From positions 19,994-83,993 of the forward strand of contig JBDQJI010000003.1 in assembly GCA_040263875.1 (NCBI GenBank): a stretch of 64,000 nt of DNA, given 5' to 3'. Every line of letters starts with the position of its first letter. The stretch's first letter is position 1. Of the stretch, positions 14,739 to 33,385 are shown one piece after another. Origin of the DNA: Alphaproteobacteria bacterium (GTDB lineage: Bacteria; Pseudomonadota; Alphaproteobacteria; Bin95). The position numbers were made by a program, and so were the translations under genes. The notes under the pieces were generated by a model. That model made no database searches and was not told where the DNA came from. It was given only the letters and a program-made list of their open reading frames with translations.

Positions 14739-15770
14739 ATGCTGGTCGTGCATGACGACGCCCATCTACAACATCAACCGGCAGAAATTATCAGCCGTGG
14801 ACGCCACGTTCCCCATGTGGAGATCGCACGCCGTGCTGAAGAACTCTTAGCGGCAGCAAAGGCTGGTGGCCACGACCTGCAGGCCCCCACAGCCCACGGC
14901 ATGGCCCCCATTAAAGCCATCCACGACAAAGAATATTTGGCGTTCTTGGAGTCCGCATGGACGCGCTGGCAAGCCTTGCCTGACCCAACGCCATATGTGC
15001 ACCCTTACGCGCAACCGAACCGTAGGATGACCGGCAAGCCGACCAGCATCATGGGGCAGGCTGGTTATTACATGGCCACGAACTCCGCACCCATCGCCGA
15101 AGGTACATGGGGAGCGGCCAAAGTATCTGCGGATATAGCCCTGACTGCTGCTGACGCCGTAATGGCCGGCGCTTCAGAAGCTTATGCGCTTTGCCGCCCA
15201 CCCGGGCATCATGCGTTTCAGGATTTGGCTGGCGGATTCTGCTATCTGAACAATATCGCTATCGCCGCACAGCACATGCGCGGCAAATGGGACAAACTTG
15301 CGATCCTAGATATCGATGTTCACCACGGTAACGGAACCCAAGGCATTTTCTACGACCGGGGCGATGTGCTGTTTGCGTCGCTCCACGGCGACCCATCAGA
15401 CTATTTCCCGTTCTTCGCAGGCTACAAAGATGAAACCGGCGAAGGCGCTGGTGCCGGAAAGACAGCCAATTTCCCTATGGCCCAGAACAGCGGCAACGAT
15501 GTATTTATGGGTTCTTTGGATAAGGCCTTCGACGCTATCCAGGAGCATCAACCAGGCGCCCTTTTAGTCAGCCTAGGGTTTGATGCTTATGAGCATGATC
15601 CGATTGGATATCTGAAAGTGACAACTGGCGGTTTTGGCAAAGTTGCTGAGCGCATCGCCGGGCTCGGCCTGCCGACACTATTGGTGCAGGAGGGTGGCTA
15701 CAATTGCGAAGGGCTTGGCCCAAACCTAACGTCGTTTTTTGCTGGATTCTCTGCTGGCCGGGCCAAATAG
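14739..15770 (+). CDS. Histone deacetylase-family amidohydrolase (acetoin utilisation AcuC / acetylpolyamine amidohydrolase-like)
   Basis: CRPPGHHA...FCYLNNIAIAA...ILDIDVHHGNGTQGIFY...SLGFDAYEHDPIG gives the Zn-binding D/H/D pattern of the arginase/deacetylase fold. Confidence 0.85.
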   Translation: MLVVHDDAHLQHQPAEIISRGRHVPHVEIARRAEELLAAAKAGGHDLQAPTAHGMAPIKAIHDKEYLAFLESAWTRWQALPDPTPYVHPYAQPNRRMTGKPTSIMGQAGYYMATNSAPIAEGTWGAAKVSADIALTAADAVMAGASEAYALCRPPGHHAFQDLAGGFCYLNNIAIAAQHMRGKWDKLAILDIDVHHGNGTQGIFYDRGDVLFASLHGDPSDYFPFFAGYKDETGEGAGAGKTANFPMAQNSGNDVFMGSLDKAFDAIQEHQPGALLVSLGFDAYEHDPIGYLKVTTGGFGKVAERIAGLGLPTLLVQEGGYNCEGLGPNLTSFFAGFSAGRAK

Positions 15771-15780
15771 GAGCAAACGC

Positions 15781-16944
15781 ATGTCTCATACATTTCGCTT
15801 TGATCCTATGCAGTTCCCGCCTGAAGCTGAAGCGCTACGGCAGGAAGTACGCAGCTTCCTGCGTGCAGAGATAGACACTGGAACCTTCACACCTGGTTCT
15901 GGCGATATGGCTTCCAACTTCAATCCAGAATTCAGCCGAAAGGTTGGCGCAAAAGGCTGGATTGGGCTGACCTGGCCAAAGGAATATGGCGGGCATGGCC
16001 GCAGCCAGATCGAGCGTTATGTGCTGACGGAAGAATTTTTGGCCCATGGCGCGCCTGTTCGCGCGCATTGGGTTGCAGACCGGCAATCTGGACCCGTCTT
16101 GTTGAAGTTTGGCGCAGAGTCAGTCAAACGGAGGCTGATCCCCGAGATCGTTCGCGGCGAGACCTATTTCTGCATCGGCCTATCAGAACCAAACTCTGGC
16201 TCAGACCTGTTTGCGGCTTCAACGCGCGCAAAGAAGGTAGACGGCGGCTACAAAGTAACGGGCACCAAGATTTGGACATCAAACGCCCATCGCACCCAAT
16301 ATATGATTGGCCTGATCCGCACCTCACAACCAACAGAAGACAATCGCCGCCACGGCCTGACGCAATTCCTCATCAAGATGGACACGCCCGGCATAACCGT
16401 GCGCCCAATCATCAATCTCGCTGGCCATCATGACTTCAACGAAGTCCATTTCGACGACGCCTTCGTGCCTGATGAACATGTCATTGGACGCCAAGATGAA
16501 GCCTGGAAACAGGCGACAGATGAACTTGCCTATGAACGTTCCGGCCCCGACCGCTGGCTTGAGACCATCTTTGCGCTTAACGCTGGTATCCGCGTTTCAG
16601 GCCCAAACCCGAACGACCGGACAGCCGAAACCATTGGCCGGGATGTTGCACATTTGATGACGCTCCGCCGCATGTCAGCCTCGGTGGCTGGTATGTTGCA
16701 GGCTGGTGAAACGCCAATGACAGAGGCTGCGGTCGTCAAAGACCTTGGCACCAACTGGGAGCAGGCGCTGCCAAACCGCATGCGCCTGATAGCACCCGAC
16801 GGCGTGCGCGCGCCCTCACCGAATGACACGGCCTACGAGGAGGTGATGCGTTACGCAACGCACATCGCCCCTAAGCTCACCATCCAAGGCGGCACCCGCG
16901 AGGTGCTGCGCGGCATCATCGCTCGCGGCCTCGGCCTCAGATAA
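15781..16944 (+). CDS. Acyl-CoA dehydrogenase family protein
   Basis: GWIGLTWPKEYGGHG...YFCIGLSEPNSGSDL...GYKVTGTKIWTSNAH is the ACAD N/middle-domain signature. The ATG at 15781 follows a GGAG ribosome-binding site, 10 nt after the upstream gene. Confidence 0.85.
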   Translation: MSHTFRFDPMQFPPEAEALRQEVRSFLRAEIDTGTFTPGSGDMASNFNPEFSRKVGAKGWIGLTWPKEYGGHGRSQIERYVLTEEFLAHGAPVRAHWVADRQSGPVLLKFGAESVKRRLIPEIVRGETYFCIGLSEPNSGSDLFAASTRAKKVDGGYKVTGTKIWTSNAHRTQYMIGLIRTSQPTEDNRRHGLTQFLIKMDTPGITVRPIINLAGHHDFNEVHFDDAFVPDEHVIGRQDEAWKQATDELAYERSGPDRWLETIFALNAGIRVSGPNPNDRTAETIGRDVAHLMTLRRMSASVAGMLQAGETPMTEAAVVKDLGTNWEQALPNRMRLIAPDGVRAPSPNDTAYEEVMRYATHIAPKLTIQGGTREVLRGIIARGLGLR

Positions 16945-16956
16945 GGACCAGATGAA

Positions 16957-17895
16957 ATGGCAACGCTCGACACTCCAAAGCTGACGACAATCGCGACCGG
17001 CCTCCGTTTTCCCGAAGGGCCAATCGCAATGCCAGATGGCTCAGTCATTCTAGTTGAGATCGAGCGGCAAACGCTGTCCCGCGTCACGCCTGATGGCAAA
17101 GTTGAAGTGGTCGCCGAGGTTCCAGGTGGGCCAAATGGGGCTGCGCTCGGACCGGATGGTGCGATCTATATTTGCAATAATGGCGGCTTTGAGTTCCACA
17201 AGGATGACAGCGGTATACGTCCTGTGCGCCAAGCCTACAGCTACAAAGGTGGATCCATTGACATGGTGGACTTGCAGTCAGGTGCAGTCAAAACCCTCTA
17301 CACCCATTGTGGTGACAACAAGCTTTGTGGCCCGAATGACATCGTATTTGACCGCCAAGGCGGCATGTATTTCAGTGACCTTGGCAAAACGAGAGATCGG
17401 GACTGGGACCGCTCTGGCCTCTATTACGCATCAATTGACGGCAGCCACATCACTGAAGTCGCCTTCCCGCTGATCACAGCCAATGGCGTCGGCCTCTCAC
17501 CAGATGAGAAGACCGTTTATGCAGCGGAAACCCAAACAGGCCGCCTCTGGGCGTTCGATATTGAAAGCCCGGGCAAGATCAATCCACGCGCATGGCCGTC
17601 CCCCCACGGCGGCTGGCTGGTTGGCGGCACGACAGGCTTCCGGAATTTCGACAGCTTGGCAGTGGATGCAGCAGGAAACATCTGTGTCGCAACATTGATG
17701 GACGGTGGCATCACCGTAATCGCGCCAGATGGGTCTAACGTCGATCATGTGCCGATGCCTGATCCCTACACCACCAATATTTGCTTCGGTGGTGCGGGCA
17801 TGAAAACGGCGTTCATCACCCTTTCGCTTGGGGGAACGCTCGTCTCATGCACCTGGCCAAAAGCTGGCCTACCGCTGAATTTCCTCAACACCTGA
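16957..17895 (+). CDS. SMP-30/gluconolactonase/LRE-family beta-propeller hydrolase
   Basis: Repeated GLRFPEGP..., GGPNGAALGPDG, NDIVFDRQGGMYFSD and ANGVGLSPDEKTVY blades. It lies 12 nt downstream of the ACAD gene. Confidence 0.8.
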   Translation: MATLDTPKLTTIATGLRFPEGPIAMPDGSVILVEIERQTLSRVTPDGKVEVVAEVPGGPNGAALGPDGAIYICNNGGFEFHKDDSGIRPVRQAYSYKGGSIDMVDLQSGAVKTLYTHCGDNKLCGPNDIVFDRQGGMYFSDLGKTRDRDWDRSGLYYASIDGSHITEVAFPLITANGVGLSPDEKTVYAAETQTGRLWAFDIESPGKINPRAWPSPHGGWLVGGTTGFRNFDSLAVDAAGNICVATLMDGGITVIAPDGSNVDHVPMPDPYTTNICFGGAGMKTAFITLSLGGTLVSCTWPKAGLPLNFLNT

Positions 17896-17902
17896 GGCAG
17901 TT

Positions 17903-18580
17903 CTAGTCCTCGAAGCTGCAACCCAGCCGCTTTAGGCTCGCGTCAACCCATGCGCGGTCCGCCTTGCCGGCGTCGATATCTGCAAACTGCTGAATTTCAG
18001 CCGCATTCTTCGCTTCTGTGGCTTTCAATACGTCGGCGGCATCCGCTTTTGGAACGCAAAGACAGCCGTCCCAATCGCCAATCATCAGATCGCCGGGCCG
18101 TATGACCATGCCATCAATGGCAATGTCGTAGCCGATTTCACCGGGGCCATCTTTGTAAGGGCCGCGATGGCTGACGCCTGCTGCGAATACCGGCAGGTTT
18201 CGTTTCTGGAATGCATCCAAGTCCCGGATGGCAGCATCCAACACGAATCCGGCGACACCGCGCGACATTGCAAGTGAGAGCATGATCTCGCCCATCAGCG
18301 AATTGGTAAGGTCGCCACCGCCATCACACACGATAACATCACCCGGCTCAGCCATATCAATGGCCTTATGCAACATCAAATTATCGCCAGGGCGTGTCTT
18401 CACTGTAAGCGCCGGGCCAGAAAGTTGGCCAGATGCGTGCATTGGCCGAAGCCGTGAGCCACCTGCGGTCATACGGGACATGCTATCCGACACATTCGCG
18501 ACCGGCATATGTTGATATTTTGCGACTAGGTCAGCCGAAACTTTGTCTGTGTTTTTGCGGACACGAAAACCAATGGGCAT
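17903..18580 (-). CDS. RraA-family protein (RNase E regulator / 4-hydroxy-4-methyl-2-oxoglutarate aldolase-like)
   Basis: VIVCDGGGDLTNSLMGEIMLSLAMSRGVAGFVLDAAIRD is the RraA/HMG-CHA aldolase core. The start is taken at MPIGF (offset 24 codons into the track ORF), preceded by an AGGGGAGGGG ribosome-binding site. Confidence 0.75.
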   Translation of the reverse strand: MPIGFRVRKNTDKVSADLVAKYQHMPVANVSDSMSRMTAGGSRLRPMHASGQLSGPALTVKTRPGDNLMLHKAIDMAEPGDVIVCDGGGDLTNSLMGEIMLSLAMSRGVAGFVLDAAIRDLDAFQKRNLPVFAAGVSHRGPYKDGPGEIGYDIAIDGMVIRPGDLMIGDWDGCLCVPKADAADVLKATEAKNAAEIQQFADIDAGKADRAWVDASLKRLGCSFED

Positions 18581-18702
18581 AGCGGCCCCTCCCCTAATGA
18601 TGTATTCGCCTAAGTCTGCCTCGCAGCTGCCGGAAACGCCAGCTTGCATCACTGGCGGCCTCCGGGCGACACTTCCATCAACTTTGCGCCAATAGTCTAT
18701 TG

Positions 18703-19521
18703 ATGGAGTTCTCGATGATCGCTGAAGCCAAAGATTTCGAAGCCGAGTGCGCTGCGCTCGCCACTCTGCTCGCCCCCTTAAGCGATGCTGATTTTGCCCG
18801 TGAAACAGCGTTCAAAGGCTGGTCCATCAACGACATCATGTCTCATCTCTATATGGGCGACACATCGGCCCGGCAAACGCTGATGGAACCAGAAGCCTAT
18901 GCAGAAGCACGGGCAGTTCGTCGGAAAGCGCAGGATGGCGGCGAAACACTGCTGTCCTACCAACGGAGATGGGTTGATGGAGTACAAGGACGTGCGCTCG
19001 CAGCCGCATGGCGCGAATCATCCGGTAAAACCGCCGCCGCCTATGCTGAGGCAGACCCAAAACTTCGCGTAAAATGGGTTGGCCCAGATATGAGCGCCCG
19101 CTCCAGCATCACAGCGCGATTGATGGAGACCTGGTCCCATTCACAGGCGATCTATGACCTCCTGGGCGTTGTTCGCCAGGATCATGACGGCATCCGCGCC
19201 ATCGCACATCTTGGTGCCATTACCTATGGCTGGACCTTCAAGAATCGCAACGAAGACCCACCGGGACCACCGCCGCATATCCGACTGACAGCACCTTCCG
19301 GTGCCGTTTGGGAATGGAATGCCGACACATCAGCGCCCAGTGAACGCGTAGAAGGCCCTGCTACAGATTTCTGCCAAGTGGTTGCGCAAACCCGGAATAT
19401 CCAGGATGTCGGCTTGACTGTTACTGGTCCGAACGCAAACACGTGGATGGCCAAAGCCCAGTGTTTTGCAGGGCCGCCCAACGATCCGCCAACACCCGGC
19501 GCTCGCCGGACAGGCGCTTGA
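18703..19521 (+). CDS. DinB/YfiT-like (maleylpyruvate-isomerase N-terminal domain, TIGR03083/03084-type) metal-dependent enzyme
   Basis: N-terminal four-helix-bundle pattern (DFARETAFKGWSINDIMSHL...HxxxD/E) plus a C-terminal domain. The start could be the TTG at 18700 or the ATG at 18703. Confidence 0.55.
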   Translation: MEFSMIAEAKDFEAECAALATLLAPLSDADFARETAFKGWSINDIMSHLYMGDTSARQTLMEPEAYAEARAVRRKAQDGGETLLSYQRRWVDGVQGRALAAAWRESSGKTAAAYAEADPKLRVKWVGPDMSARSSITARLMETWSHSQAIYDLLGVVRQDHDGIRAIAHLGAITYGWTFKNRNEDPPGPPPHIRLTAPSGAVWEWNADTSAPSERVEGPATDFCQVVAQTRNIQDVGLTVTGPNANTWMAKAQCFAGPPNDPPTPGARRTGA

Positions 19522-19571
19522 TGTCAATATAACGTCTCGAAGACTACGGATACCGCCAGACAGGAAACACC

Positions 19572-20666
19572 ATGGCTAAAATTGACCATATTGAAACGCG
19601 CCTTTTCCATGTACCGCTGGATGAACCTTTGGCAGATGCGAAGCATGGCACGCACACGCATTTTGAACTGATTACCGCCACTGTTCATTTAGATGATGGC
19701 CGGTCTGGCACGGGCTACAGCTATACTGGTGGACGTGGCGGATTTGCTGTCGCGGCAATGATTGAACACGACTTGGCACCGTTCCTCATGGGCCAAGCGC
19801 CAGATGATGTTGAAGCGCTGTATGAAGCCATGCAGTGGCACGTGCACTATGTCGCCCGTGGTGGGATTGCGTCTTTCGCCATTTCAGCCGTCGATATCGC
19901 ACTTTGGGATCTACGCGGACATGCTCGGGGACAACCCCTTTGGCAAATGGCTGGCGGCGCTTCACGCACGACTAAGGCGTATTGCGGCGGGATTGATCTA
20001 AATTTCACCCAGGAACGCTTGCTGAAAAACATCCAGGGCTATCTGGATAACGGCTTCAACGCGGTCAAAATCAAAGTTGGAAAGCCGGAATTGGATGAGG
20101 ACGCACAGCGCAGCGCCGCCGTCCGTAAGCTCATCGGCCCGGATGTGGCTTTCATGGTGGATGCCAATTATTCACTAACAGTCGAACAAGCCATCCCGGC
20201 GGCGCGCGTGTTCATGGAGCAGGATATTCTTTGGTTCGAGGAGCCGATTATCCCAGATAACTATGCTGGATACGCTGAAATCGCTGCAGCGACGGGCTGC
20301 CCGCTCGCCATGGGCGAAAACCTGCACACGATCCATGAGTTCGAATATGCTTTTGCCCAATCAAACTTATCGTTCATCCAGCCGGACGCCTCAAATTGTG
20401 GTGGCATTACTGGATGGCTTCAGGTGTCTACCCTCGCGAAACAGCACGGCATTCCTGTGTGCAGTCATGGCATGCAGGAGTTGCAAGTCAGCCTCCTAGC
20501 CGCACAGCCACATGCCGGTTGGCTCGAAGTCCACAGCTTCCCGATTGACCGCTACACGACACGACCGCTAGTGGTCGAAAACTGTCTTGCAGTGGCACCG
20601 GATGAACCAGGGACAGGCGTGACATTTGATTGGGATAGCTTGAACGGCTTCGAACAAGCCCGTTAG
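19572..20666 (+). CDS. Mandelate racemase / muconate lactonizing enzyme family (enolase superfamily) protein
   Basis: N-terminal capping domain, KIKVG...D (general-base Lys motif [14 protein letters not shown]), and metal ligands D(MVDANY)...E(FEEP)...D(IQPD). Confidence 0.85.
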
Positions 20667-22066
20667 CCGACCTGCTCCGTTGTCACGGGGAAATGCGCTG
20701 CAAGATCGTCTGCCTCCATCAGATGATAGGCGTTGAAGCGGTAAGCGGGGCCAGCCGCAAGTTCTGGCGGCGTAAACGGAAACGCAATGTTGCCGCTAGT
20801 GGACAGCCTTCCTGGAAAGCCGTGATGCAGCAGATATTGCTTCGTTGATTTCGTAACGGCGAGCGCGCGATCTCTAGTTGGCGCAATCACCTCACCCAGA
20901 ATGAATATCTCACGGAGCGGTGTCACAGGCGGGTCTGGCCAAGGAAATACCGCATCCAAGCCATACGTGCGGAAGGTCAAGTCATAGTCTGGTGGTACGC
21001 CGGCACCACACACTAAATCCTGCACAACGCCTTTCACTTCTTCCAGCAAAGTTTTCACATTCTGGATAAATCGCGGGTCCGCTGATCCTGCAAGCAAAAC
21101 CGCTCGTTCGCCCAGATAGCGCGCACCCTCCAGCTTGATTGTTAGCTGCTCCGCAGGCTCCCAGCGCGCACCTTCGACGCGGGTGCGCCTGGCATCAACA
21201 GCACTGTAGGTCGCTGTATCGACCAGTGCCGCACCTTCAGGCTCTGTAATCCTGTGGGGGTCCGCTTGCTCATAAAGACTATGCGCAGCGACAGACATAG
21301 GCGTTGCGGCCCGTGCGGGGTTCATACTTTCCAGCACAAAGCCTTGCTTATCCAGCACCGCCAGAATCGGATCACGACCACCTGGCAAGCAGCACAGTGA
21401 GGCGCATTCGACGATTTTGGCCATATGGACGGTCAGCCCGGTCGGAAAGCCCAGCCATTCCGGAATGCAGGCATAAATGCCCGTATCGCAGGCGCGACCA
21501 GCAATGATTACGTCTGGCTCAGTCTCCAATGCACGAATAAACGCCTCTGTCCCTGCCTGCCCAACCAAGTTTGAGCTGGCGTGGACTTCTTCTACTGTCA
21601 AATCCGGTAGAACGCCCATGCCGCGCACGCGTCCAGCATCAACGGCAGCGCTCACACTATCGCGATCCATATCGGAACGAATAACGGCCAGTTTGAAACT
21701 CAGGCCATGCTCAGCTGCGATATCCCGGATTATCGCCAACGTCGCGTCCAAGTGCGCTGCAGCGCCTGCAGAACCGGCGCTGCCAATGATCAGCGGGATA
21801 TTGTGGGTCCGCGCGCCAACCAACAACTTCTCCAGGTCACGCCGCGTTTGCTCACCTGCGGTCGCCATCTCGCCGGCGCCTAGGAATGTTGGCCCGATAT
21901 CTGTGGATCCCATGTCAGCGCCGATCATGTCCGGCTTCCGGGCCAGTGCCGTTGTGAACGCTGGCTCTGGCACCCCGTAGCCAAGCTGCCCCGTCGCGCC
22001 GATCAATTTCAGCGGCTGGTCAGGGTTGGCCACGAAACGTGCGCGCAGGCGGGCGACGGCGCTCAT
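20663..22066 (-). CDS. DUF1446 / AtuA-like (acyclic terpene utilisation family) protein
   Basis: 467 aa, starting [31 protein letters not shown]. Size and N-terminal pattern fit AtuA-family proteins. It is paired immediately upstream with a roughly 100-aa DUF4387-like ORF, which is the canonical arrangement. Confidence 0.6.
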
Positions 22067-22365
22067 ACTTCAATCTCCAACAATGGCGCATGTTGCTGCG
22101 CGCCGTATACGTCCCGATCTCCGGGCGCACCGGCGGCTTCATGGCGCGGCAGCGTGATCTTCATGGCGAGCGCCGTCGGGTATGGTGTGATGACAACGGC
22201 GTTGGCCGAAACGCTGTAGATTTTGGCGATAGGTTCTGCCCGTAAGCCAGGTGCTGCCAGGCAACGTTCATAGTCCGCTTCGGTCTCTAACATTATGTCG
22301 AATGTCAGATGCAGAGGCCCTGCATTCTTGCTGCGGACAACACGAGCCATATCCATCAATCGCAT
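22063..22365 (-). CDS. DUF4387-like small protein, the AtuA-associated partner
   Basis: A 100-aa ORF (MRLMDMARVVRSKNAGPLHLTFDIMLE...) whose stop overlaps the AtuA-like start by 4 nt. The ~100-aa partner directly 5' of AtuA is the usual gene pair. Confidence 0.5.
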   Translation of the reverse strand: MRLMDMARVVRSKNAGPLHLTFDIMLETEADYERCLAAPGLRAEPIAKIYSVSANAVVITPYPTALAMKITLPRHEAAGAPGDRDVYGAQQHAPLLEIEV

Positions 22366-22378
22366 GCTGGGCGTCTCC

Positions 22379-23611
22379 CTATCCCGTCTTTACGGTCTCA
22401 CTTGCCGGTGCCCGCCATGTTTCTTGCGCGGCGATCGCAAATACCATTCCCGCCAGCATGATCCCACCAGCCGCGACAAGCAAAGCAATGTCAGTGCCCG
22501 CATAGTCCGCAATCAAGCCAAGCGACAGTGGGCCAACGACATACCCAACATCCCCTACCATACGGAATGTGCTCATAGTGGCGGCGTTCATGCCGGGTGG
22601 TGCGCAATCTGCCGCGTAGGCCGATGGTGCAGCACCGCCAATTGCGCTGGCGACACCCCAGACCACACATGCAGCAAGAAACAATGGATAGCCGCCAGAA
22701 AATGCGAACAAGCACATGGATATGCCGGTGATGAGTGTTGTCGGCACAATCACCGTTTTGCGCCCGTAGCGATCCGCCAAAGCGCCCGCTGGATAGGCTG
22801 CAAGCAGGCCGAGTCCGCTCCCAAGTGCCAACCCAAACCCGACCTCACTCAACGACAAATCAAGCTTTACCGCACCGATCAATGGGATCAGGCTGAATAG
22901 TCCGCCCGTGCGCACCACGGCGTTCATTAGGGAAACAATGCAGATCAATACGTAGCCTCGCTTCGCTGCAAGTATCCGCAATTGCTGCATGAAAGGCACG
23001 CGATCCGGAGCGGGTTTGCCGTCCCGATTGGCAGCGAAATCACGGGTCTCACCCACAGCAAACCAAGCGCAGAGCGCACAGACAACTCCGGCGATGCCAT
23101 AGGCAGCGAATGGAGCATATAGGCCGAAATTGTCGGCGATCAGCCCGCCTGGAAGCGGGCCGACACCCACTGCGAAGATGAATGTGCCTTGGTAGATTGA
23201 TATAACGCGGCCCCGTCGTGCGGGCGTCGTGATGTCCGCCAGGATGATCTGGCCGGTCGTGATTACGAGCCCAGCGCCTGCGCCAGCGACAAAGCGGCCA
23301 AGCATGAACTCAGGGTAGCTATCTGCCACCGCACAGATGACGTTACCCAGCGCTGTCACGAGACCGCCTAAAGCCAAACTTGGGCGACGCCCAAGCCTAT
23401 CGGACAACATCCCGGCACACGGCGCGCCAAACAGCCTTGCAAAACCGTAGATCGCGAGGGCCATGCCGATGAGGAACGTCGAAACGCCAAATGATTTCGC
23501 ATAGAGCGAAATCGTCGGCACGATAGCGCCAAACCCAAGCTGATTGATGGCAATCAGCACACACATCCATATCAGAACGCGCCGCTCGCTTAGATTAGCG
23601 GGCGGGGTCAC
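22379..23611 (-). CDS. MFS transporter
   Basis: 12 predicted transmembrane helices, with an MFS signature between TM2 and TM3 (GMLSDRLGRRPSL) and a repeat in the second half (GALADRYGRK). Confidence 0.85.
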   Translation of the reverse strand: MTPPANLSERRVLIWMCVLIAINQLGFGAIVPTISLYAKSFGVSTFLIGMALAIYGFARLFGAPCAGMLSDRLGRRPSLALGGLVTALGNVICAVADSYPEFMLGRFVAGAGAGLVITTGQIILADITTPARRGRVISIYQGTFIFAVGVGPLPGGLIADNFGLYAPFAAYGIAGVVCALCAWFAVGETRDFAANRDGKPAPDRVPFMQQLRILAAKRGYVLICIVSLMNAVVRTGGLFSLIPLIGAVKLDLSLSEVGFGLALGSGLGLLAAYPAGALADRYGRKTVIVPTTLITGISMCLFAFSGGYPLFLAACVVWGVASAIGGAAPSAYAADCAPPGMNAATMSTFRMVGDVGYVVGPLSLGLIADYAGTDIALLVAAGGIMLAGMVFAIAAQETWRAPASETVKTG

Positions 23612-23633
23612 AGGCCAGCCTTTAGATCAGCGA

Positions 23634-24917
23634 TCAAAGCTCAGCCATGCTTTCATCAAAGGCCCGGATCGTCGTTTCGATATCTGCTTCCGTATGGCAG
23701 ACGCCGATATAGTGCTTGCTTTCACTTTTCAGAATGCCGCGTTTGCGCATGCCGGCATTGTACTTCGCGGCTTTCTCCGGATCACCAAGGGAGGAGCGAT
23801 AATCGACCACTTCCTGGTTGGCAAAAATCACATCGAACATCGGTGCATCGCCAACGACCTTGGCTTCGATATTGCGGCGCTTCAGGATGTCTCTATAACC
23901 TTCCATCAACGCTTCACCACGGGCGAACAATGTCTCGAATGCGCCAGGGCGTTTCAGGATTTCGAGCGTCTTGCGGCCAGCGGCAGCGGCCACTGGGTTA
24001 CCCGAAAGCGTGCCGATCTGCGCCATGAACTTGTCTTCACCGACGGCAGATTTATCGAAATTCGCCATAATCTCGGCCTTGCCCCCGATAGCGGCCAACG
24101 GGAATCCACCGCCAATGGCTTTGCCCATGGTGCAGATATCCGGCATCACGCCGTAATATTGCTGCGCGCCGCCATAAGCGAAGCGGAAGCCTGTGACGAC
24201 TTCATCGAAAATCAGCAGAATGTCGTTCTCTTCCGTGATCCGGCGAAGGCCCTCTAGGAAGCCAGGTTGAGGCGGAATGAGGCGCTGGAACGGCTCAGCC
24301 AAAATCGCCGCGATCTCACCCTTGTGCTCTTTCACCAAGCTCTCGACCATGGCAAGATCGTTATAGGGTGCTACCAGCATTTCCTGCTGCACGCTCTTTG
24401 GGATACCTGGGCTATCTGGAACGCCGACTGGGAAATTGCTTTTCCGTTTTGGCGCTAGGCTGATGAGGCCAAAGTCGCTCATCCCATGATAACCGCCTTC
24501 GAATTTCAGGATTTTGTCCCGGCCCGTATGAGCGCGCGCAACGCGCATCGCGTACATATCAGCTTCAGATCCAGATGAGACGAACCGCACCTGCTCGACG
24601 GATGGCATCGCTTCCACAATCTCAGCCGCCAGATGTATACCGTCTGCATTATTCGCGAAGAACGTCGTGCCTTGGGTGACGCAATGCTGCGTGGCTGCCA
24701 GCACTTCCGGGTGCGCATGGCCAACAATCATTGGGCCAGAGCCTAGCAGGTAGTCGATATACTCGTTCCCGCTCACATCCCAGACATGACTGCCCTCCCC
24801 GCGCGCGACGATCAGAGGATAGGTGACATTGCCGAAGCCGCCCGCAGGCAGCACCCGTTTCGCCAGTTCAACAAGTTCAGCCTCACTCATATCTTGAGCC
24901 AATGCAGCTTCAGCCAT
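23634..24917 (-). CDS. Class III (omega) aminotransferase, PLP-dependent
   Basis: YLLGSGPMIVGHAHPEV..., the PLP-Lys region (DEVVTGFR...), and a 427-aa size typical of GSA-aminomutase/omega-transaminase family members. Confidence 0.85.
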   Translation of the reverse strand: MAEAALAQDMSEAELVELAKRVLPAGGFGNVTYPLIVARGEGSHVWDVSGNEYIDYLLGSGPMIVGHAHPEVLAATQHCVTQGTTFFANNADGIHLAAEIVEAMPSVEQVRFVSSGSEADMYAMRVARAHTGRDKILKFEGGYHGMSDFGLISLAPKRKSNFPVGVPDSPGIPKSVQQEMLVAPYNDLAMVESLVKEHKGEIAAILAEPFQRLIPPQPGFLEGLRRITEENDILLIFDEVVTGFRFAYGGAQQYYGVMPDICTMGKAIGGGFPLAAIGGKAEIMANFDKSAVGEDKFMAQIGTLSGNPVAAAAGRKTLEILKRPGAFETLFARGEALMEGYRDILKRRNIEAKVVGDAPMFDVIFANQEVVDYRSSLGDPEKAAKYNAGMRKRGILKSESKHYIGVCHTEADIETTIRAFDESMAEL

Positions 24918-24938
24918 CGCCCTGCTCCCTTTGATTAA

Positions 24939-25724
24939 TCAGGTGACCGGTGACCGGCCGCCGTCAACATTGATATCCACGCCCGTAACGTAAGCCGCCG
25001 CATCGGACGCCAGAAAACAGGCAACATTGGCGAACTCTTCCGATGTGCCAATGCGGCCAAGCGGAATGCGCGCCTTCTCTGCCATCTCGACCTTGAATTC
25101 ATCATAACTCAGGCCGCGATTATCTGCTGCGTGCTTGCGAACATGCTGATCGCTATCGATCAATCCGGTCATCATCGCATTAACCAGAATATTATGTGGC
25201 GCGCCTTCGTTCGCCAGAATTTTGGAAAGTGCCAGCCCAGCCGCCCGCGTCACTGCCGTTGGCGCACCCTCTGCCGCCGGTGCTTTTGCCCCTGTATTTA
25301 GGATATTGATGATTCGGCCCCAGTTACGCTCTTTCATGTCTGCGAATGCGAGGCGTGAGAAGCGAATTTGGGCGAAAAGCTTTAGCTCCAGATCGTTCTT
25401 CCAGTCTTCATCCGTCATTTCCAGGAACGGGCCACGCAGACTGGAGCCTGCATTGTTCACCAGAATATCAACCTTGCCATAGGTTTTGACCGCTTCAGCA
25501 TAGGCGGCCTCTATCGCACGCGGGTCTGTCACGTCACAGGCAATTGCATGCGCATTACCGCCAGCACCCGTGATTAGTTTGACCGTTTCATCAAGTGGTT
25601 CCTGGCGCCGTGCTACAGGCACGATATTTGCCCCAGCCGCCGCCATCTTCATGCCCATAGCCCGGCCGAGCCCCATGGATCCGCCAGTGATCAGCGCCGT
25701 GCGCCCAGTCAAATCGATCTGCAT
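24939..25724 (-). CDS. SDR-family oxidoreductase (3-oxoacyl-ACP reductase-like)
   Basis: TALITGGSMGLGRAM Rossmann motif, NNAG, and YxxxK. The start is taken at MQIDLTGR (codon 19 of the track ORF). An earlier start at 25778 is possible. Confidence 0.8.
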   Translation of the reverse strand: MQIDLTGRTALITGGSMGLGRAMGMKMAAAGANIVPVARRQEPLDETVKLITGAGGNAHAIACDVTDPRAIEAAYAEAVKTYGKVDILVNNAGSSLRGPFLEMTDEDWKNDLELKLFAQIRFSRLAFADMKERNWGRIINILNTGAKAPAAEGAPTAVTRAAGLALSKILANEGAPHNILVNAMMTGLIDSDQHVRKHAADNRGLSYDEFKVEMAEKARIPLGRIGTSEEFANVACFLASDAAAYVTGVDINVDGGRSPVT

Positions 25725-25867
25725 CTTTGATATTCCTGTGAATGAATTCGTCGTCTCTGTCCGCATGGTGAGGCGCATAGAGGCTGCTTGTCCAGAGTAT
25801 ACCCGCTTGGCTCATCAGCATGGCGGCGTTAGCCTGTTCTTCCGATCCCGAAGTTCAGGTTTGCTTG

Positions 25868-27946
25868 ATGGCGACACGTTATTCTCTTGGCATAGATATT
25901 GGCGGCACATTTACCGACGTGGTTGTGCAAGACCATGAGAAAGGCCACCAGTTCTCGCGTAAACTGCTGACCACACATGATGACCCTGCCCGCGCCGTGC
26001 TAACCGGCGTGGCCGAGGTGATCAATGAGGATGGCGTGCCAGCGACGGAAATTGGCCGCGTTGTGCACGCTACCACGCTATTCACCAATGCGCTGATCGA
26101 ACGCAAAGGCGCTGAGACCGGACTGATCGCCACCGAAGGCTTCCGGGATGTGCTGGAGATTGGGCGCGAGCGGAAATACGAACTTTACGATATTCATATC
26201 CAGAAGCCGCTCCCCTTGGCCCCTCGTGAGCGCCGTCTTGAAGCACAGGAACGGATGAACTTTGACGGCAGTGTGAAAACGCCGCTGGATGCTAGCAGCA
26301 TTCGAGTCGCTGCTGACGCGCTGGTCGCAGAAGGCGTTACTTCCGTCGCCATTTCGTTTTTGCATGCCTATGCCAATCCTGCTCATGAGCAAGAAGCTGC
26401 CGCCATTGTCCAGGCTGCATATCCTGAACTAGCTGTCAGTGTCTCATCTGACGTAGCACCTGAGATTCGGGAATATGAGCGGACGTCTACCGCACTCGCT
26501 AACGCCTATATCAAGCCACTTGCGCGTGATTATCTGGATGGCATTCAGGCAGGGTTACAAAAGGCGGGCGTCGAGGCACCGCTGTTGTTGATGCTCTCAA
26601 ACGGTGGCCTCTCAGATCTGGTTGAGGCTAAGCGCGCGCCGGTGGCATTGCTGGAGTCTGGCCCTGCGGCTGGTGCACTCGCGGCGGCATGGTTTGGACG
26701 TGACGCGGCGGGCGGCGACGTTCTAGCGTTTGATATGGGCGGAACGACGGCAAAGCTCGCTGTCGTAGATAACGGCAAGCCAGAAGTGGCCTATCACTTT
26801 GAAGCTGCCCGGCAGAAACGATTTGCTGAAGGCAGCGGATTGCCCATCCGCACCTCAACGATTGAACTGATTGAGATTGGTGCTGGCGGTGGCTCTATCG
26901 CGCGCTTGGATGAAATCGGCCTTCTAAAAGTCGGCCCGGATAGTGCTGGATCAGACCCCGGCCCTGCCTGCTATGGACTAGGTGGCACGGCACCGACCGT
27001 GACTGATGCGAACTTCGCGCTCGGCCTGCTGGATGCAGAGAGTTTCGCAGGTGGTGTCATGCAGATTGACATGGCCGCAGCGGAAGCCTCGCTGGACGAG
27101 CTTGCTGCGTCTGCCAATCTTGGTCGCGCAGAGATAGCACAGGGCATTCGAGACGTCGTGAACGAAACCATGGCATCTGCCGCTCGCGTGCATATCGCAG
27201 AGCGCGGCAAAGACCCACGCCGATACGCTTTGCTTGCAACAGGCGGCGGTGGGCCACTACATGGTGCAGATGTTGCGCGAAAGCTGGGCCTAAAGCGCAT
27301 TATCTCCCCCGCATCCGCCGGCGTTGCCTCCGCTATAGGCCTGCTGATCGCTCCCGCCCGTGTGGACAGGGTCGCGACGGTGGCCAAGCGCATGGACCAG
27401 CTTGACTGGTCTGCATTTGAGCAAACCTTCGCGCGCATGGAGGCCGACGCCAGGCACGTCATCGCGGCAACTGGGCTCAATGCAGAGAGCGCCAGGGTCG
27501 AGCGGCGCGCGGACGTCCGCTATGTCGGCCAGGCGTTCGAGATTGTAGTGGACCTGCCCCCAGGCCCCTATGACGCCAACTCAGCAACAAGCTTGCAAGG
27601 CGCGTTCGAGAAGGCGTACTTGGCCCAATTCACACGCACCCCGCCCGCCGGACCGGTAGAAATTATCAATGTCCGCATTGCAGCATCAGCCGACGCTAGC
27701 GTCGCCGCAACGAACGCCTCGAATGCAGCTACGGATGCGCCGAAGCTGAAAGGCGAGCGACGTGTATGGTCCCCAGCCGAAAAAGCCTACCGGACGACGC
27801 CTGTTTATGACCGCTATGCGTTGCGCCCCGGTGATGCATTTGATGGTCCGGCCTTGGTGGAGGAACGAGAATCTACACTGGCAGCACCCGAACGCTCCCG
27901 TTTCATCGTTGCGGCAGGCGGCGAAATCGTCGTCGATCTGGATTGA
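25868..27946 (+). CDS. hyuA: Hydantoinase/oxoprolinase A subunit (HyuA/OplA, N-methylhydantoinase A-like)
   Basis: N-terminal RYSLGIDIGGTFTDVVV (ASKHA/actin-fold ATPase) and a second DMGGTTAKLAV motif. The ATG at 25868 (offset 16 codons in the track ORF). Confidence 0.85.
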   Translation: MATRYSLGIDIGGTFTDVVVQDHEKGHQFSRKLLTTHDDPARAVLTGVAEVINEDGVPATEIGRVVHATTLFTNALIERKGAETGLIATEGFRDVLEIGRERKYELYDIHIQKPLPLAPRERRLEAQERMNFDGSVKTPLDASSIRVAADALVAEGVTSVAISFLHAYANPAHEQEAAAIVQAAYPELAVSVSSDVAPEIREYERTSTALANAYIKPLARDYLDGIQAGLQKAGVEAPLLLMLSNGGLSDLVEAKRAPVALLESGPAAGALAAAWFGRDAAGGDVLAFDMGGTTAKLAVVDNGKPEVAYHFEAARQKRFAEGSGLPIRTSTIELIEIGAGGGSIARLDEIGLLKVGPDSAGSDPGPACYGLGGTAPTVTDANFALGLLDAESFAGGVMQIDMAAAEASLDELAASANLGRAEIAQGIRDVVNETMASAARVHIAERGKDPRRYALLATGGGGPLHGADVARKLGLKRIISPASAGVASAIGLLIAPARVDRVATVAKRMDQLDWSAFEQTFARMEADARHVIAATGLNAESARVERRADVRYVGQAFEIVVDLPPGPYDANSATSLQGAFEKAYLAQFTRTPPAGPVEIINVRIAASADASVAATNASNAATDAPKLKGERRVWSPAEKAYRTTPVYDRYALRPGDAFDGPALVEERESTLAAPERSRFIVAAGGEIVVDLD

Positions 27947-27959
27947 TAGGATAAAGCCA

Positions 27960-29513
27960 ATGACCAAAGCCGCATTTGATGCCGTTACCCTAGAAATCCT
28001 TTGGCGCCGCATGATTTCTGCCGCAGATGAAGCTGCAAAAACACTGCAGCGCGTCTCGTTCTCTACGTTAGTGAATGAAAGCAATGATTTTGCCTGTGTG
28101 CTGACAGACGCAACCGGCGCATCGCTCGTCCAGAACACCGAAAGCATCCCCTCATTTAATGGCTGCTTACCGGTAACCGTGAAGCACTTTCTGGATGTCA
28201 TTGGTGTTAACGATATGCGCCCCGGCGATTTTCTCGTTTGCAATGATCCGTGGGTGGGTACAGGGCATCTGAATGACATCACCCTTGCAAAACCTGTTTT
28301 CCGGGATGGCAAGATCGTCGCTTTTTGTGCCTCCACCGCCCATGCGCCTGATATTGGCGGCAAGGTCCGATCCGTCGTTGCCCGGGAAGTGTTTGAGGAA
28401 GGCTTCGCCATCCCGGCCATGCACTTAATCCGGGATGGTGAGCCAGACGCAACGTTCTTCAAGCTCATGCGCGCAGCCGTTCGCACACCAGACCAAACAG
28501 AAGGCGATATTTGGGCGCAAGTCACCGCACTTGATCTGATGGAGCAACGCCTAACTGCGCTGATGGACGAGTACGCGCTGACCTCCCTTGAGGACTTCGC
28601 CGCCGAAATCCACGGCCGTTGCGAAACCGCCATGCGCGCCGCGTTCAAAGAAGCACCCGATGGCCGTTATGAGTTTGGTTTCGAGACGGATGGCATGGAT
28701 GCACCGTTCCACTACCAGGTCGCGGTAACGATTACCGGTGACCGTGTGCATGTGGATTGGACTGGAACCAGTGATCAGGTAGGCCGGGCGATCAACTGCC
28801 CCCTCGTCTACACGTTTGCCATGACATCCTATGCGTTGAAATGTGCATTCCTGCCGAACCTGCCTAACAATGAAGGCGTATTCCGCTGCATTGAAGTGAC
28901 GGCTGAGCCCGGCACGATTGTGAACCCCACACGACCGGTGGCTGTTGGCGGTCGCATGGCAACGGGTCATTACCTGCCTGTCGCCATCTTCGGGGCCTTG
29001 GCGCAAGCACTGCCCGATAAAGTGATGGCTGCCTCTGGCTCTCCGCTTTGGTCAATTATCCAGACCGGTGTTACGGACGACGGCAAACCCTACGCCAACA
29101 CGCTGTTCTTCAATGGTGGATCAGGTGCAACGGCTGAAACGGACGGCCAGAGTTGCTATTCCTGGCCGTCCAATATCTCCAATGTCCCGGTCGAGCTAAC
29201 AGAACGGAACACGCCGTTTTTTGTAGGCCGTAAGCAACTTCGTGATGGATCAGGCGGTGCTGGAGCGCAAACGGGTGGCCTAGGCCAGGAGATTGAACTT
29301 GAGCATGCCGGCACAGGCGATCTCGGCATCATCTTCATGGCAGAACGCCTACGTCACCCGGCCCATGGCCTTATGGGCGGCAAGGAAGGTGCATGCGGCG
29401 CTGTATTGATCGACGGCGAACCGGCCAATGCCCGCGCGGATCATGTTCTTAAGCCCGGCCAGACAATCACTCTGAAGCTGCCAGGTGGCGGCGGATATGG
29501 GGCCATTAAGTAA
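27960..29513 (+). CDS. hyuB: Hydantoinase B / oxoprolinase B subunit (HyuB)
   Basis: Hydantoinase_B family pattern (DPVTLEILWRRMISAADEAAKTLQRVSFS...NDPWVGTGHLNDIT...). The start MTKAAFDAV at 27960 is 14 nt after the hyuA stop. Confidence 0.85.
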   Translation: MTKAAFDAVTLEILWRRMISAADEAAKTLQRVSFSTLVNESNDFACVLTDATGASLVQNTESIPSFNGCLPVTVKHFLDVIGVNDMRPGDFLVCNDPWVGTGHLNDITLAKPVFRDGKIVAFCASTAHAPDIGGKVRSVVAREVFEEGFAIPAMHLIRDGEPDATFFKLMRAAVRTPDQTEGDIWAQVTALDLMEQRLTALMDEYALTSLEDFAAEIHGRCETAMRAAFKEAPDGRYEFGFETDGMDAPFHYQVAVTITGDRVHVDWTGTSDQVGRAINCPLVYTFAMTSYALKCAFLPNLPNNEGVFRCIEVTAEPGTIVNPTRPVAVGGRMATGHYLPVAIFGALAQALPDKVMAASGSPLWSIIQTGVTDDGKPYANTLFFNGGSGATAETDGQSCYSWPSNISNVPVELTERNTPFFVGRKQLRDGSGGAGAQTGGLGQEIELEHAGTGDLGIIFMAERLRHPAHGLMGGKEGACGAVLIDGEPANARADHVLKPGQTITLKLPGGGGYGAIK

Positions 29514-30834
29514 GCCCTAAATTCTCCCGGAGCGTTGGGCCTGCATAGTCTTTATGGTAGAGTTCCCGCCGTTGAAGCTCGGGGACAACGTGGCTGACGA
29601 AATCCTCATAGGCACCCGGCATATGCGTTGCGGCCAGCACGAATCCGTCGCAGCCTTTGCCTGTGAACCATTCTTCCATGCCGTCTGCCACCTGCTTAGC
29701 CGTGCCAACAAACTGCGCCATTTCCTTCAAGGTTCCACGGGCGGAATGTTCAACGAAATCACGGACCGTCGGGTTGGCTTTGCCTGACAGCCGGATCACG
29801 CGATCCCGGATCGCCTGAAGGCCGCTGATCGCCTCTAGCTCATCTGACGAAAACGCATCGTCCATGTCCTTGGCGGCGAAGTCATAGTTGAGCGCTTCAG
29901 ACAACAAGGCCAGCGTATCAATCGGTTGGTGTAGCTCAGCAATCATGCCGGCCTTGTCTTCAGCCTCTGCCTGGCTTTCCCCAACAATGGCATATGCAGC
30001 TGGCGTGAGGCGGAAGCTATTTGGGTCCCTGCCTGTTTTCTCGGCCAGTGCCTGGGTCTCACCATACACCCGCTGCGCATATTCCAGGTTGGGGAAGATT
30101 GCGAAAATCAGTTCTGCCCACTTAACAGCAAACTGCTGACCACGCCCGCTTTGGCCGGCTTGGATGATGACCGGGCGGCCTTGCGGCGTTGGCGGCACAG
30201 TGAAAGGCCCACGGCTCTTGAAATAAGCGCCCTCATGATTGAGCGCTTTTACCTTCGAGGGATCTGCGAAAATACCGTTGGCCTTGTCGAGAACAATTGC
30301 GTCTTCCGCCCATGTATCCCAATGGCCGTGGACGACCTCCAAAAACTCTTCCGCTCGCTCATAGCGCTCTGCATGGCCAAGCAGCGCATCTTGGCCAAAG
30401 TTCGCGGCCTCAGAATCATTCAGTGAGGTGACGACATTCCATGCAGCCCGGCCGTTGGTCATGTGGTCCAGGGTTGAGAACTGTCGGGCTGCGTGAAATG
30501 GCTCGTAATACGTTGTGGACATAGTGGCACCCAGGCCAATGCGGGATGTAACCGCCCCCATGGTTGCCAGGATCGGGATTGGATCCAGTTTCACAACACG
30601 CACGCCGTTACGAATAGACTCGTCCGCACTATCGCCATACCGGTCTGGCATAGCCAAGCGATCATCAAAGAACGCCATATGGAACTTACCGGCCTCAAGC
30701 GTCTTTGCAATCCGCTGATAATACTCAGGCCTCAGAAAGTCTGTCGCAGACTCTGGGTGGCGCCAGGACGCTGGATAGTTCGAGCAATTTTGAGCTTGCA
30801 GAAATCCCACAAGCGCCATCTGGCGTTTGGCCAT
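29506..30834 (-). CDS. LLM-class flavin-dependent monooxygenase (NtaA/SnaA/DszA/SsuD-like)
   Basis: 442 aa with a TIM-barrel luciferase-like pattern (MALVGFLQAQNCSNYPASWRHPES...HMAFFDDRLAMP...). Its 3' end overlaps the hyuB 3' end by 8 nt (convergent). Confidence 0.8.
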   Translation of the reverse strand: MAKRQMALVGFLQAQNCSNYPASWRHPESATDFLRPEYYQRIAKTLEAGKFHMAFFDDRLAMPDRYGDSADESIRNGVRVVKLDPIPILATMGAVTSRIGLGATMSTTYYEPFHAARQFSTLDHMTNGRAAWNVVTSLNDSEAANFGQDALLGHAERYERAEEFLEVVHGHWDTWAEDAIVLDKANGIFADPSKVKALNHEGAYFKSRGPFTVPPTPQGRPVIIQAGQSGRGQQFAVKWAELIFAIFPNLEYAQRVYGETQALAEKTGRDPNSFRLTPAAYAIVGESQAEAEDKAGMIAELHQPIDTLALLSEALNYDFAAKDMDDAFSSDELEAISGLQAIRDRVIRLSGKANPTVRDFVEHSARGTLKEMAQFVGTAKQVADGMEEWFTGKGCDGFVLAATHMPGAYEDFVSHVVPELQRRELYHKDYAGPTLRENLGLT

Positions 30835-30863: not shown

Positions 30864-31253
30864 TTAGGCGGCTTCTTTGGCGGCCTCGAAATTCAGCTCG
30901 CAGAGCACGCCGTTCGGGTCGCGCACGAACAGCTGCCAAAGCCGCCCGCCTGGAACAATACGTTCCTCGAACTCATAACCCTGGGCCTTTAGCTGCGTCT
31001 TGAAGGTCTCAAAGCCTTCAGCAGCGAATGCAACATGATCGATACAGCCAGTCTCGGTCAGCGCGGTTTCGTCCATGCCATTAACATCGATCAAGTGCAT
31101 CACTGCCTCATCGCCTGAATAAAGCCAAGCGCCGGGGAATTGAAAGTTGGGGCGGTCGCCATCTTTCAAGCCAATCGCTTCCTCCCAGAACTTCACAGTC
31201 CCGGCGAGGTCGCCAGTGCGGATATTGATATGCTGAAGAATGCCGATGCCCAT
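30864..31253 (-). CDS. VOC-family protein (glyoxalase / bleomycin resistance / extradiol dioxygenase fold)
   Basis: 129 aa with metal-ligand positions (HINIRT...HLID...HVAF...E) spaced as in glyoxalase I-like proteins. Confidence 0.75.
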   Translation of the reverse strand: MGIGILQHINIRTGDLAGTVKFWEEAIGLKDGDRPNFQFPGAWLYSGDEAVMHLIDVNGMDETALTETGCIDHVAFAAEGFETFKTQLKAQGYEFEERIVPGGRLWQLFVRDPNGVLCELNFEAAKEAA

Positions 31254-33309: not shown

Positions 33310-33385
33310 GGCCCCATCGTCTAGCGGTCTAGGACGTCGGCCTCTCACGCCGAAAACACGGGTTCGAGTCCCGTTGGGGTCACCA
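33310..33385 (+). tRNA. tRNA-Glu (anticodon CTC)
   Basis: A 76-nt cloverleaf: acceptor GGCCCCA/TGGGGTC (one G-U pair), a TCGTCTAGCGGTCTAGGAC D-arm typical of tRNA-Glu, anticodon stem TCGGC/GCCGA with loop CTCTCAC (anticodon CTC), a GGGTTCGAGTCCC T-arm, discriminator A, and an encoded CCA. Confidence 0.85.

Follow-up and report, generated by a model that had tools for sequence, protein, structure and literature searches.

A DUF4387-AtuA gene pair of the citramalate lyase family in a putative catabolic operon confined to one clade of marine Alphaproteobacteria

Proteins of the AtuA (DUF1446) and DUF4387 families, encoded side by side, have recently been placed in a structural and catalytic setting. 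PDB entries 9ERQ and 9EVF hold a heteromer of an AtuA-family and a DUF4387 protein, which the depositors name citramalate lyase subunits A and B (cmlA and cmlB); the entry title, 'citramalate lyase - AMPPNP - citramalate complex', was released in October 2025. A 2026 preprint makes use of the two-subunit enzyme (Cml) of Raoultella planticola, with cmlAB a gift of I. Berg's laboratory, and states that it cleaves citramalate directly into pyruvate and acetate. That laboratory had pointed out in 2015 that the methylaspartate cluster of enterobacteria, in which the citramalate-cleaving step was missing, has a DUF1446 gene of unexplained role downstream of mal. Our literature searches found no primary paper on CmlAB, and its function is taken here from the names and titles of the PDB entries and from the one preprint using the enzyme. 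We consider a related pair in a stretch of 64,000 nucleotides (the window) of contig JBDQJI010000003.1, from an alphaproteobacterium (assembly GCA_040263875.1), where it closes a five-gene unit at positions 20663-25778 that is divergent from genes for a hydantoinase-like HyuAB. From comparison of sequences and gene neighbourhoods we hold, with middling confidence, that the unit is a catabolic operon restricted to one clade, and that an acetate-releasing hydroxy-acid lyase of Cml type would perform the final C-C cleavage.

Two other described systems invite comparison. AtuA itself, from the atuABCDEFGH cluster of Pseudomonas and Thauera, has the same Pfam domain (PF07287), and the reaction tentatively assigned to it is likewise a release of acetate from a 3-hydroxy-3-substituted acid. 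Unlike the window protein, canonical AtuA is a single chain of about 600 residues (615 in Thauera) that acts on a CoA ester and sits with the genes of geranyl-CoA carboxylase. The caprolactam genes of Pseudomonas jessenii encode the caprolactamase CapAB, a 6-aminohexanoate aminotransferase and a dehydrogenase.

The large subunit of the window pair (20663..22066, minus strand; 467 residues) aligns over nearly its whole length with chain 9erq_A (E = 2.6e-102, 41% identity), and the small subunit (22063..22365, minus strand; 100 residues; Pfam PF14330, 108.8 bits) with 9erq_B, 'citramalate lyase subunit B' (E = 4.9e-21, 47% identity). The CmlAB orthologues of Escherichia coli O157:H7 Sakai, ECs_0760/ECs_0759, are 38% and 44% identical to the AtuA-like and DUF4387 proteins. 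The layout is likewise that of CmlAB, with an AtuA/DUF1446 protein of about 460 residues and a DUF4387 protein of about 100 encoded by adjacent genes, the large subunits being 38-41% and the small subunits 44-47% identical over their full length. At 74 positions the residue is shared by at least 97% of 87 sequences, the Cml clade included, and the window AtuA-like protein keeps every one of them; these family-invariant residues, candidates for catalysis or nucleotide binding, include glycine-rich N-terminal motifs. The small subunits share the motif GDxDVYGAQQHAPLL. Full-length homology in sequence and fold shows that the window pair belongs to the family of CmlAB. An earlier note on this DNA, made by a model from the letters alone, held that the AtuA/DUF4387 pair had no established biochemistry and that the operon could help to deorphanise AtuA; the former statement is out of date and the latter has been overtaken by the structure and activity of CmlAB.

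By analogy with CmlAB, the window enzyme would cleave a free beta-hydroxy-carboxylate, R1R2C(OH)-CH2-COO-, into a carbonyl compound and acetate, and the carbonyl product would be a 2-oxo acid if R2 is a carboxylate. Acetate release from a 3-hydroxy-3-substituted acid would then appear to be the chemistry common to the AtuA/DUF4387 family. In the RefSeq record for E. coli (36934-38618 of locus L087; L numbers denote loci of our survey, described below) the homologue of CmlA is entered as '3-methylaspartate ammonia-lyase' and that of CmlB as 'acyl-CoA synthetase', which look like two annotation errors beside the true mal gene.

Gene order sets the window pair apart from CmlAB. In the Cml clade the AtuA gene precedes that for DUF4387, as seen in E. 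coli, on a Klebsiella plasmid, in L084 and in the first of the two pairs of L082, whereas in the window, and in every relative of at least 48% identity, DUF4387 comes first, nearly always with a 4-nt overlap. The two groups separate in a neighbour-joining tree, and 15 positions that are invariant in the window subfamily differ in every Cml-clade sequence, the extra arginines R231 and R294 among them. R231 lies in a conserved, low-confidence loop (PGGRD) adjoining the invariant D232, a pattern that would be typical of an active-site loop. Nor is the methylaspartate/mesaconase context of the Cml clade present: E. coli O157 has mal-cmlA-cmlB beside glmSEL and fumD, and no methylaspartate-pathway gene (mal, glmSEL, fumD) was found among the annotated genes of the window. 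Both gene orders are found in tandem in a metagenome-assembled genome (MAG) of the Acetobacterales (L082, 5059-9304), the first pair with the Cml-like order and 38% identity to the window AtuA protein, the second with the window-like order and 64% identity.

The five open reading frames (ORFs) of the unit follow one another on the minus strand with operon-like packing. The first gene encodes an atypical short-chain dehydrogenase/reductase (SDR; 24939..25724; 261 residues; Pfam adh_short and adh_short_C2), followed by a class-III pyridoxal phosphate (PLP) aminotransferase (AT; 23634..24917; 427 residues; Pfam Aminotran_3, 215 bits), a major facilitator superfamily (MFS) transporter (22379..23611; 410 residues, GTG start; Pfam MFS_1, 193.8 bits) and the pair. 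Intergenic gaps measure 21 nt (SDR-AT), 22 nt (AT-MFS) and 13 nt (MFS-DUF4387), a ribosome-binding site (AGGGAG) stands directly after the MFS stop codon, and an ATGA overlap joins the DUF4387 stop to the AtuA start. On the plus strand HyuA (25868..27946; 692 residues) and HyuB (27960..29513; 517 residues) diverge from the unit. The earlier note's description of five co-directional genes of these families, closely spaced and divergent from hyuA/hyuB, is borne out by the ORFs and their Pfam assignments.

Relatives of the pair were surveyed with one genome per species; 91 were found and 80 loci kept. Co-occurrence was scored by tblastn of every window protein against these loci and not judged from gene clusters alone, since the ORF caller, which uses a codon-position GC score, was imperfect and recovered 72 of the 80 AtuA genes. 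DUF4387 lies directly upstream of the AtuA homologue in nearly all loci. The MFS, AT, SDR and HyuAB genes accompany the pair, in whole or in part, in only seven of them (L007-L013), with AtuA proteins at least 69% identical to that of the window; the short contigs among these seven hold only part of the arrangement. Additional copies of the seven-gene unit are carried by the metagenome contigs L088, L095 and L096. The association of the pair with AT and HyuAB across genomes, which the earlier note had offered as a check, is thus limited to a single clade.

Within that clade the order HyuB<HyuA<>SDR>AT>MFS>DUF4387>AtuA is kept in three lineages, namely the window clade, L012/L088/L095 and L013/L096, whose AtuA proteins are 69-96% identical and whose flanking genes are different. 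The MFS proteins of the other operon lineages are 63-66% and the HyuB proteins 80-86% identical to those of the window, and the unit is still intact where HyuA has fallen to 71%. Retention in three lineages with differing flanks is beyond chance and supports a coupling of the seven genes. The AtuA proteins of operon-bearing loci are monophyletic and come from MAGs of marine Alphaproteobacteria, and the seven-gene layout is confined to one small clade of these uncultured bacteria. A protein identical to the window AtuA-like protein is present on seawater metagenome contigs, and proteins 95-96% identical to it occur in MAGs labelled 'uncultured Alphaproteobacteria'.

In the route that we propose, the ATP-dependent HyuAB would open a cyclic amide, lactam- or hydantoin-like, and the transaminase, which resembles glutamate-1-semialdehyde aminomutase (GSAM), would take the amino group off the resulting amino acid. 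The atypical SDR might then adjust the carbonyl/hydroxyl state to give a hydroxy acid, which the lyase would split into central metabolites, while the MFS protein would carry the substrate or an intermediate across the membrane. We infer the order of these steps, the involvement of HyuAB and the direction of transport. A more specific version, in which the DUF4387-first subfamily acts on a substrate other than citramalate and closes an undescribed, CoA-independent route in the marine clade (ATP-dependent opening of a cyclic amide to give a beta- or gamma-amino acid, GSAM-like transamination, reduction by the Tyr-less SDR to a beta-hydroxy acid, and cleavage to acetate and a carbonyl compound), we regard as doubtful.

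The assignment of HyuAB to its superfamily is secure from the domains of HyuA (Hydant_A_N, 186.5 bits; Hydantoinase_A, 272.9 bits; Hydant_A_C) and HyuB (Hydantoinase_B, 497.3 bits). Among solved chains HyuA is nearest to N-methylhydantoinase (389 bits) and the caprolactamase alpha subunit (6YRA; 363 bits), followed by acetophenone carboxylase (281 bits) and acetone carboxylase (170 bits); HyuB scores 194 bits against N-methylhydantoinase, 141 against caprolactamase beta and at most 64 against the carboxylases. That HyuAB might be a carboxylase of the acetone/acetophenone type, with a ketone from the lyase as its substrate, was considered and set aside as the leading idea, N-methylhydantoinase and caprolactamase being much better matches for both subunits. 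For HyuA and HyuB the best NCBIfam models are CapA and CapB, with scores (501.6 and 182.2 bits) that fall far short of the equivalog cut-offs of 1000. The locus resembles the P. jessenii caprolactam genes in that an ATP-dependent HyuAB-type lactamase adjoins genes for a class-III aminotransferase and an oxidoreductase. It differs in its AT, which is GSAM-like and not of the usual omega-transaminase subgroup, in having an atypical SDR in place of an aldehyde dehydrogenase, and in possessing a Cml-type lyase, for which the caprolactam route has no use.

The AT, called an omega-aminotransferase in the earlier note, is not a typical member of that group and is better described as a GSAM-like paralogue. 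It is about 45-50% identical to cyanobacterial GSAM (330 bits) and retains the fold and the PLP-lysine motif. Against NCBIfam it scores 392 bits for the GSAM subfamily (cut-off 398), 371.4 for the hemL equivalog TIGR00713 (527.3) and 349 for GntE (525). It differs from HemL in having lost three residues at the 'FEAG' segment of GSAM and in a glycine that replaces the arginine of 'SPVRAF', positions that we take to be the substrate determinants E406 and R32 of Synechococcus GSAM. Assignment as HemL was rejected on these two alterations and on the score below the TIGR00713 cut-off. Alphaproteobacteria normally make 5-aminolevulinate with 5-aminolevulinate synthase. The subgroup to which the AT belongs also holds beta-amino-acid and D-phenylglycine transaminases and GntE. 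Relatives of the AT of about 431 residues are usually annotated automatically as HemL.

Outside the operon clade the pair keeps quite different company. Relatives that are 48-64% identical adjoin genes for CoA-transferase III, HMGL-like, VOC, Iso_dh, Ldh_2 and 2-Hacid_dh proteins, and also for PrpD, PrpF, ICL/PEP-mutase, aconitase and TctC. In Betaproteobacteria the neighbours are HMGL-like, VOC, CoA-transferase III and Iso_dh genes; in Rhizobiales they are an ABC transporter, Ldh_2, Iso_dh, 2-Hacid_dh, PrpD, PrpF, an ICL/PEP-mutase protein and a GntR regulator. Amidase and amidohydrolase genes accompany the pair in Acetobacteraceae, aconitase-family and ABC genes in Comamonadaceae, and genes for aldehyde and alcohol dehydrogenases and a class-I fumarase on the Klebsiella plasmid. 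Most of these neighbours encode enzymes that handle hydroxy-, di- or tricarboxylic acids in free form, which fits a Cml-like lyase acting on such acids, and the comparison shows the AtuA/DUF4387 pair to be a portable two-gene module with variable neighbours. The K. pneumoniae IncFIB/IncHI1B plasmid (L092, 8004-16063) carries, after a LysR gene in the opposite orientation, AtuA, DUF4387, aldehyde dehydrogenase, SDR, alcohol dehydrogenase, a further aldehyde dehydrogenase and class-I fumarase genes; its AtuA homologue is present on 12 Klebsiella plasmids. Another plasmid, pPAN3 of Paracoccus pantotrophus, has a homologue with 55% identity in a stretch for which the record carries no annotation.

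A number of observations weigh against the catabolic operon as we propose it. The sister clade of the operon-bearing AtuA proteins (L015, L016, L017, L085, L093 and L094; 70-74% identical) has the pair as a stand-alone two-gene unit in unrelated surroundings, and the MFS genes beside the pair of L094 are unrelated to that of the window. The pair thus occurs without the other genes in relatives, a finding that the earlier note had named as fatal to its own proposal. No more than two residues set the operon clade apart, which makes it unlikely that the specificity of the lyase changed on joining the operon; taken with the stand-alone sister pairs, it indicates that a common metabolite is the probable substrate of the lyase, whose reaction need not be coupled chemically to those of AT and SDR. 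Citramalate itself is not established as the substrate, given the 38-41% identity to CmlA, the opposite gene order and the 15 differing positions. The coupling is further weakened by the independent occurrence of the pair, AT and HyuAB. HyuAB relatives of 62-65% identity stand without the operon, beside luciferase-like monooxygenase (LLM), VOC or ApbA genes; the operon is always beside HyuAB, but HyuAB is not always beside the operon. The AT family is very large and highly conserved, with thousands of relatives, many of them 431-residue proteins 68-74% identical to the window AT, and two that were sampled (69-71% identical) are monocistronic in unrelated contexts in other, mostly alphaproteobacterial, genomes.

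The SDR adds to these difficulties. At the positions of the YxxxK motif it has T156 and R160, where the canonical relative 5JC8 has the tyrosine and lysine, and 'NTGAKAP' stands in place of the usual serine motif (in the region of residues 137-168), so that the Ser-Tyr-Lys set of a classical SDR is missing. The T156/R160 substitution is kept in 13 of 13 orthologues and is common to the nearest solved, uncharacterised SDRs (6JH7, 5VA8 and 5VPS). With the Tyr/Lys dyad lacking, the chemistry of the SDR is uncertain. The best NCBIfam matches of the MFS protein are DHA1/Bcr-CflA-type efflux families, all under their cut-offs, and this resemblance to exporters bears also on the earlier note, which had spoken of uptake and catabolism of an amino- or amide-containing compound: catabolism is plausible, uptake was an assumption. 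No regulator gene is encoded within the unit. Finally, we can name no plausible natural compound that needs exactly these steps. gamma-Amino-beta-hydroxybutyrate (GABOB), 4-hydroxy-2-pyrrolidone, beta-glutamate, 3-methylaspartate, D-Asp/D-Glu and mevaldate-like compounds were considered as substrates, and none is favoured by the data.

Many of these points would be accommodated if the operon were a mosaic, in which a lyase for an ordinary hydroxy acid, for example citramalate, had landed downstream of an unrelated SDR-AT-MFS unit and come to be co-transcribed with it while serving a separate pathway, HyuAB being a neighbour by descent only. Sister pairs that stand alone, the scarcity of clade-specific residues, the occurrence of AT and HyuAB families without the pair at 62-71% identity, and the fact that elsewhere the persistent partners of HyuAB are LLM, VOC and ApbA rather than the pair are all as such a history would predict. 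It accounts less well for a seven-gene order that has outlasted replacement of the flanks in three lineages whose proteins are 69-76% identical, and close spacing, with a ribosome-binding site right behind the MFS stop, is typical of genes selected for expression together. We consider the mosaic unlikely, although it is the main competitor of the catabolic operon. The genes could also be read in the opposite sense, as biosynthesis and export: a carbonyl compound made by the lyase would be turned into an amine by the GSAM-like transaminase, in the manner of GntE in guanitoxin biosynthesis, and the product would leave the cell through the DHA1-like MFS protein. The efflux families and the 349-bit GntE score agree with this scheme, as does the basic 'VARR' that follows the second beta-strand of the SDR and suggests use of NADP(H) and hence, perhaps, a reductive role. 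The MFS and GntE matches are, however, all below the family cut-offs, the unit contains no other biosynthetic genes (nonribosomal peptide synthetase, polyketide synthase or methyltransferase), the pair's relatives lie in clusters for the catabolism of acids, and HyuAB-type enzymes are catabolic ring-openers. Biosynthesis and export thus seem improbable.

Acyclic terpene utilisation, in which the AtuA-like protein would have 3-hydroxy-3-isohexenylglutaryl-CoA as its substrate in the breakdown of citronellol/geraniol, is suggested by the Pfam AtuA match and by an acyl-CoA dehydrogenase gene about 4 kb away (15739-16944). The match is partial (profile positions 58-175 of 437; 47.8 bits), and the dehydrogenase gene is not kept in the other operon lineages. 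In place of the single AtuA chain the window has a 467-residue protein and a separate DUF4387 protein of 100 residues. It is not encoded together with the set AtuC/AtuF, AtuD, AtuE and AtuR: annotation of every ORF of at least 425 residues in the window (none of them a carboxylase), and of most of the shorter large ones, revealed neither geranyl-CoA carboxylase nor a hydratase nor AtuR. The terpene explanation is effectively refuted by this gene content, and we give it almost no weight beside the catabolic operon.

The starts of the two divergent genes were revised from an alignment of six orthologous intergenic regions and from independent gene calls on identical metagenome contigs. The longest SDR ORF reaches 25778, while the start kept in six orthologous loci (ATGCAGATCGAT) lies at 25724 (M19 of the long ORF), and the identical contigs call the SDR as 261 residues; the most likely starts are therefore 25724 for SDR and 25868 for HyuA. 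The divergent spacer (25725..25867) is then about 143 nt long, against 41 nt previously. It contains a conserved element, CTGGACA(A/G)G, of which TGGACA is invariant in the six aligned loci while the surrounding sequence varies; the element could be a -35 element or an operator. A scan with the sigma-70 consensus promoter gave no match in the spacer, and a sigma-54 reading of the element was rejected by inspection of the alignment, in which the spacing does not fit. A scan of the window gave no terminator-like or promoter-like site in the internal gaps of the operon; the few matches all lie within coding sequence and are fewer than in shuffled sequence. An Rfam search of the 64-kb window gave no riboswitch or other family besides one tRNA, tRNA-Glu (CTC) at 33310-33385 (+), the sole RNA gene detected.

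Beyond HyuB, and outside the conserved core, two genes lie on the opposite strand: an FMN-dependent LLM of the NtaA/DmoA family (29506-30834, minus strand; TIGR03860, 501.8 bits, cut-off 279.7) and a VOC/glyoxalase protein (30864-31253, minus strand; Pfam matches on identical contigs). The earlier note had remarked on their proximity. They are indeed present, and conserved in only some operon-bearing lineages, being found in L008, L010 and L012/L095 and not adjoining the unit in L088 and L096. HyuAB relatives (62-71% identical) in L097 (5192-11811), L098 (8001-12807) and L096 (8001-14249) occur with a ketopantoate-reductase-like protein (ApbA), a luciferase-like monooxygenase and VOC, which suggests that these form a separate conserved module. 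A general association between HyuAB and the pair was looked for and discarded, a HyuA/HyuB-like gene lying within 10 kb in only three of about 73 non-core loci (L049, L085 and the second copy in L012), too few to count. In L012 (11495-16470), L088 (13264-18303) and L095 (12229-17290) the AtuA gene is followed by a CMD-family gene, which lies on the opposite strand, and then by a second HyuA/HyuB and an FAA-hydrolase-family gene; this second HyuA/HyuB is 43% and 33-34% identical to the first pair.

At the other end of the unit a gene of the mandelate racemase superfamily converges on the AtuA stop codon. A six-gene block beside the operon (14739-20666) encodes an HDAC-like deacetylase, an acyl-CoA dehydrogenase, an SGL lactonase-like and an RraA-like protein, a TIGR03084 metal-binding protein and a talarate/galactarate-dehydratase-like member of the enolase superfamily. 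The RraA-like protein is of the family of 4-hydroxy-4-methyl-2-oxoglutarate aldolases, and conservation of the block is limited to relatives of 88-96% identity. Elsewhere the window is ordinary chromosome, with genes for enolase, pyruvate dehydrogenase, trkA, an HflX-like GTPase, ispDF, a malic enzyme-PTA fusion and ctaA, and two adjacent pairs of a histidine kinase and a sigma-54-dependent response regulator, one kinase being NtrY-like (an ntrBC/ntrYX arrangement). The pyruvate dehydrogenase E1 beta subunit (58559-59953, minus strand) has an N-terminal lipoyl domain (Biotin_lipoyl, Transket_pyr and Transketolase_C).

The AtuA/DUF4387 family is large and lacked a known function until recently, and one of its members is now known as a thioester-free citramalate lyase. 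What the present comparison adds is a second, larger and widespread subfamily with inverted gene order, whose two genes travel together among many clusters of acid catabolism, and a single narrow operon setting, beside transaminase and hydantoinase genes, in uncultured marine bacteria. The window operon is on its own a lineage-specific case and by itself settles no open question. The neighbour contexts of the subfamily (PrpD/PrpF, Iso_dh, Ldh_2, CoA-transferase/HMGL and amidase) offer candidate substrates and partner enzymes from which the substrate range of the family may be approached.

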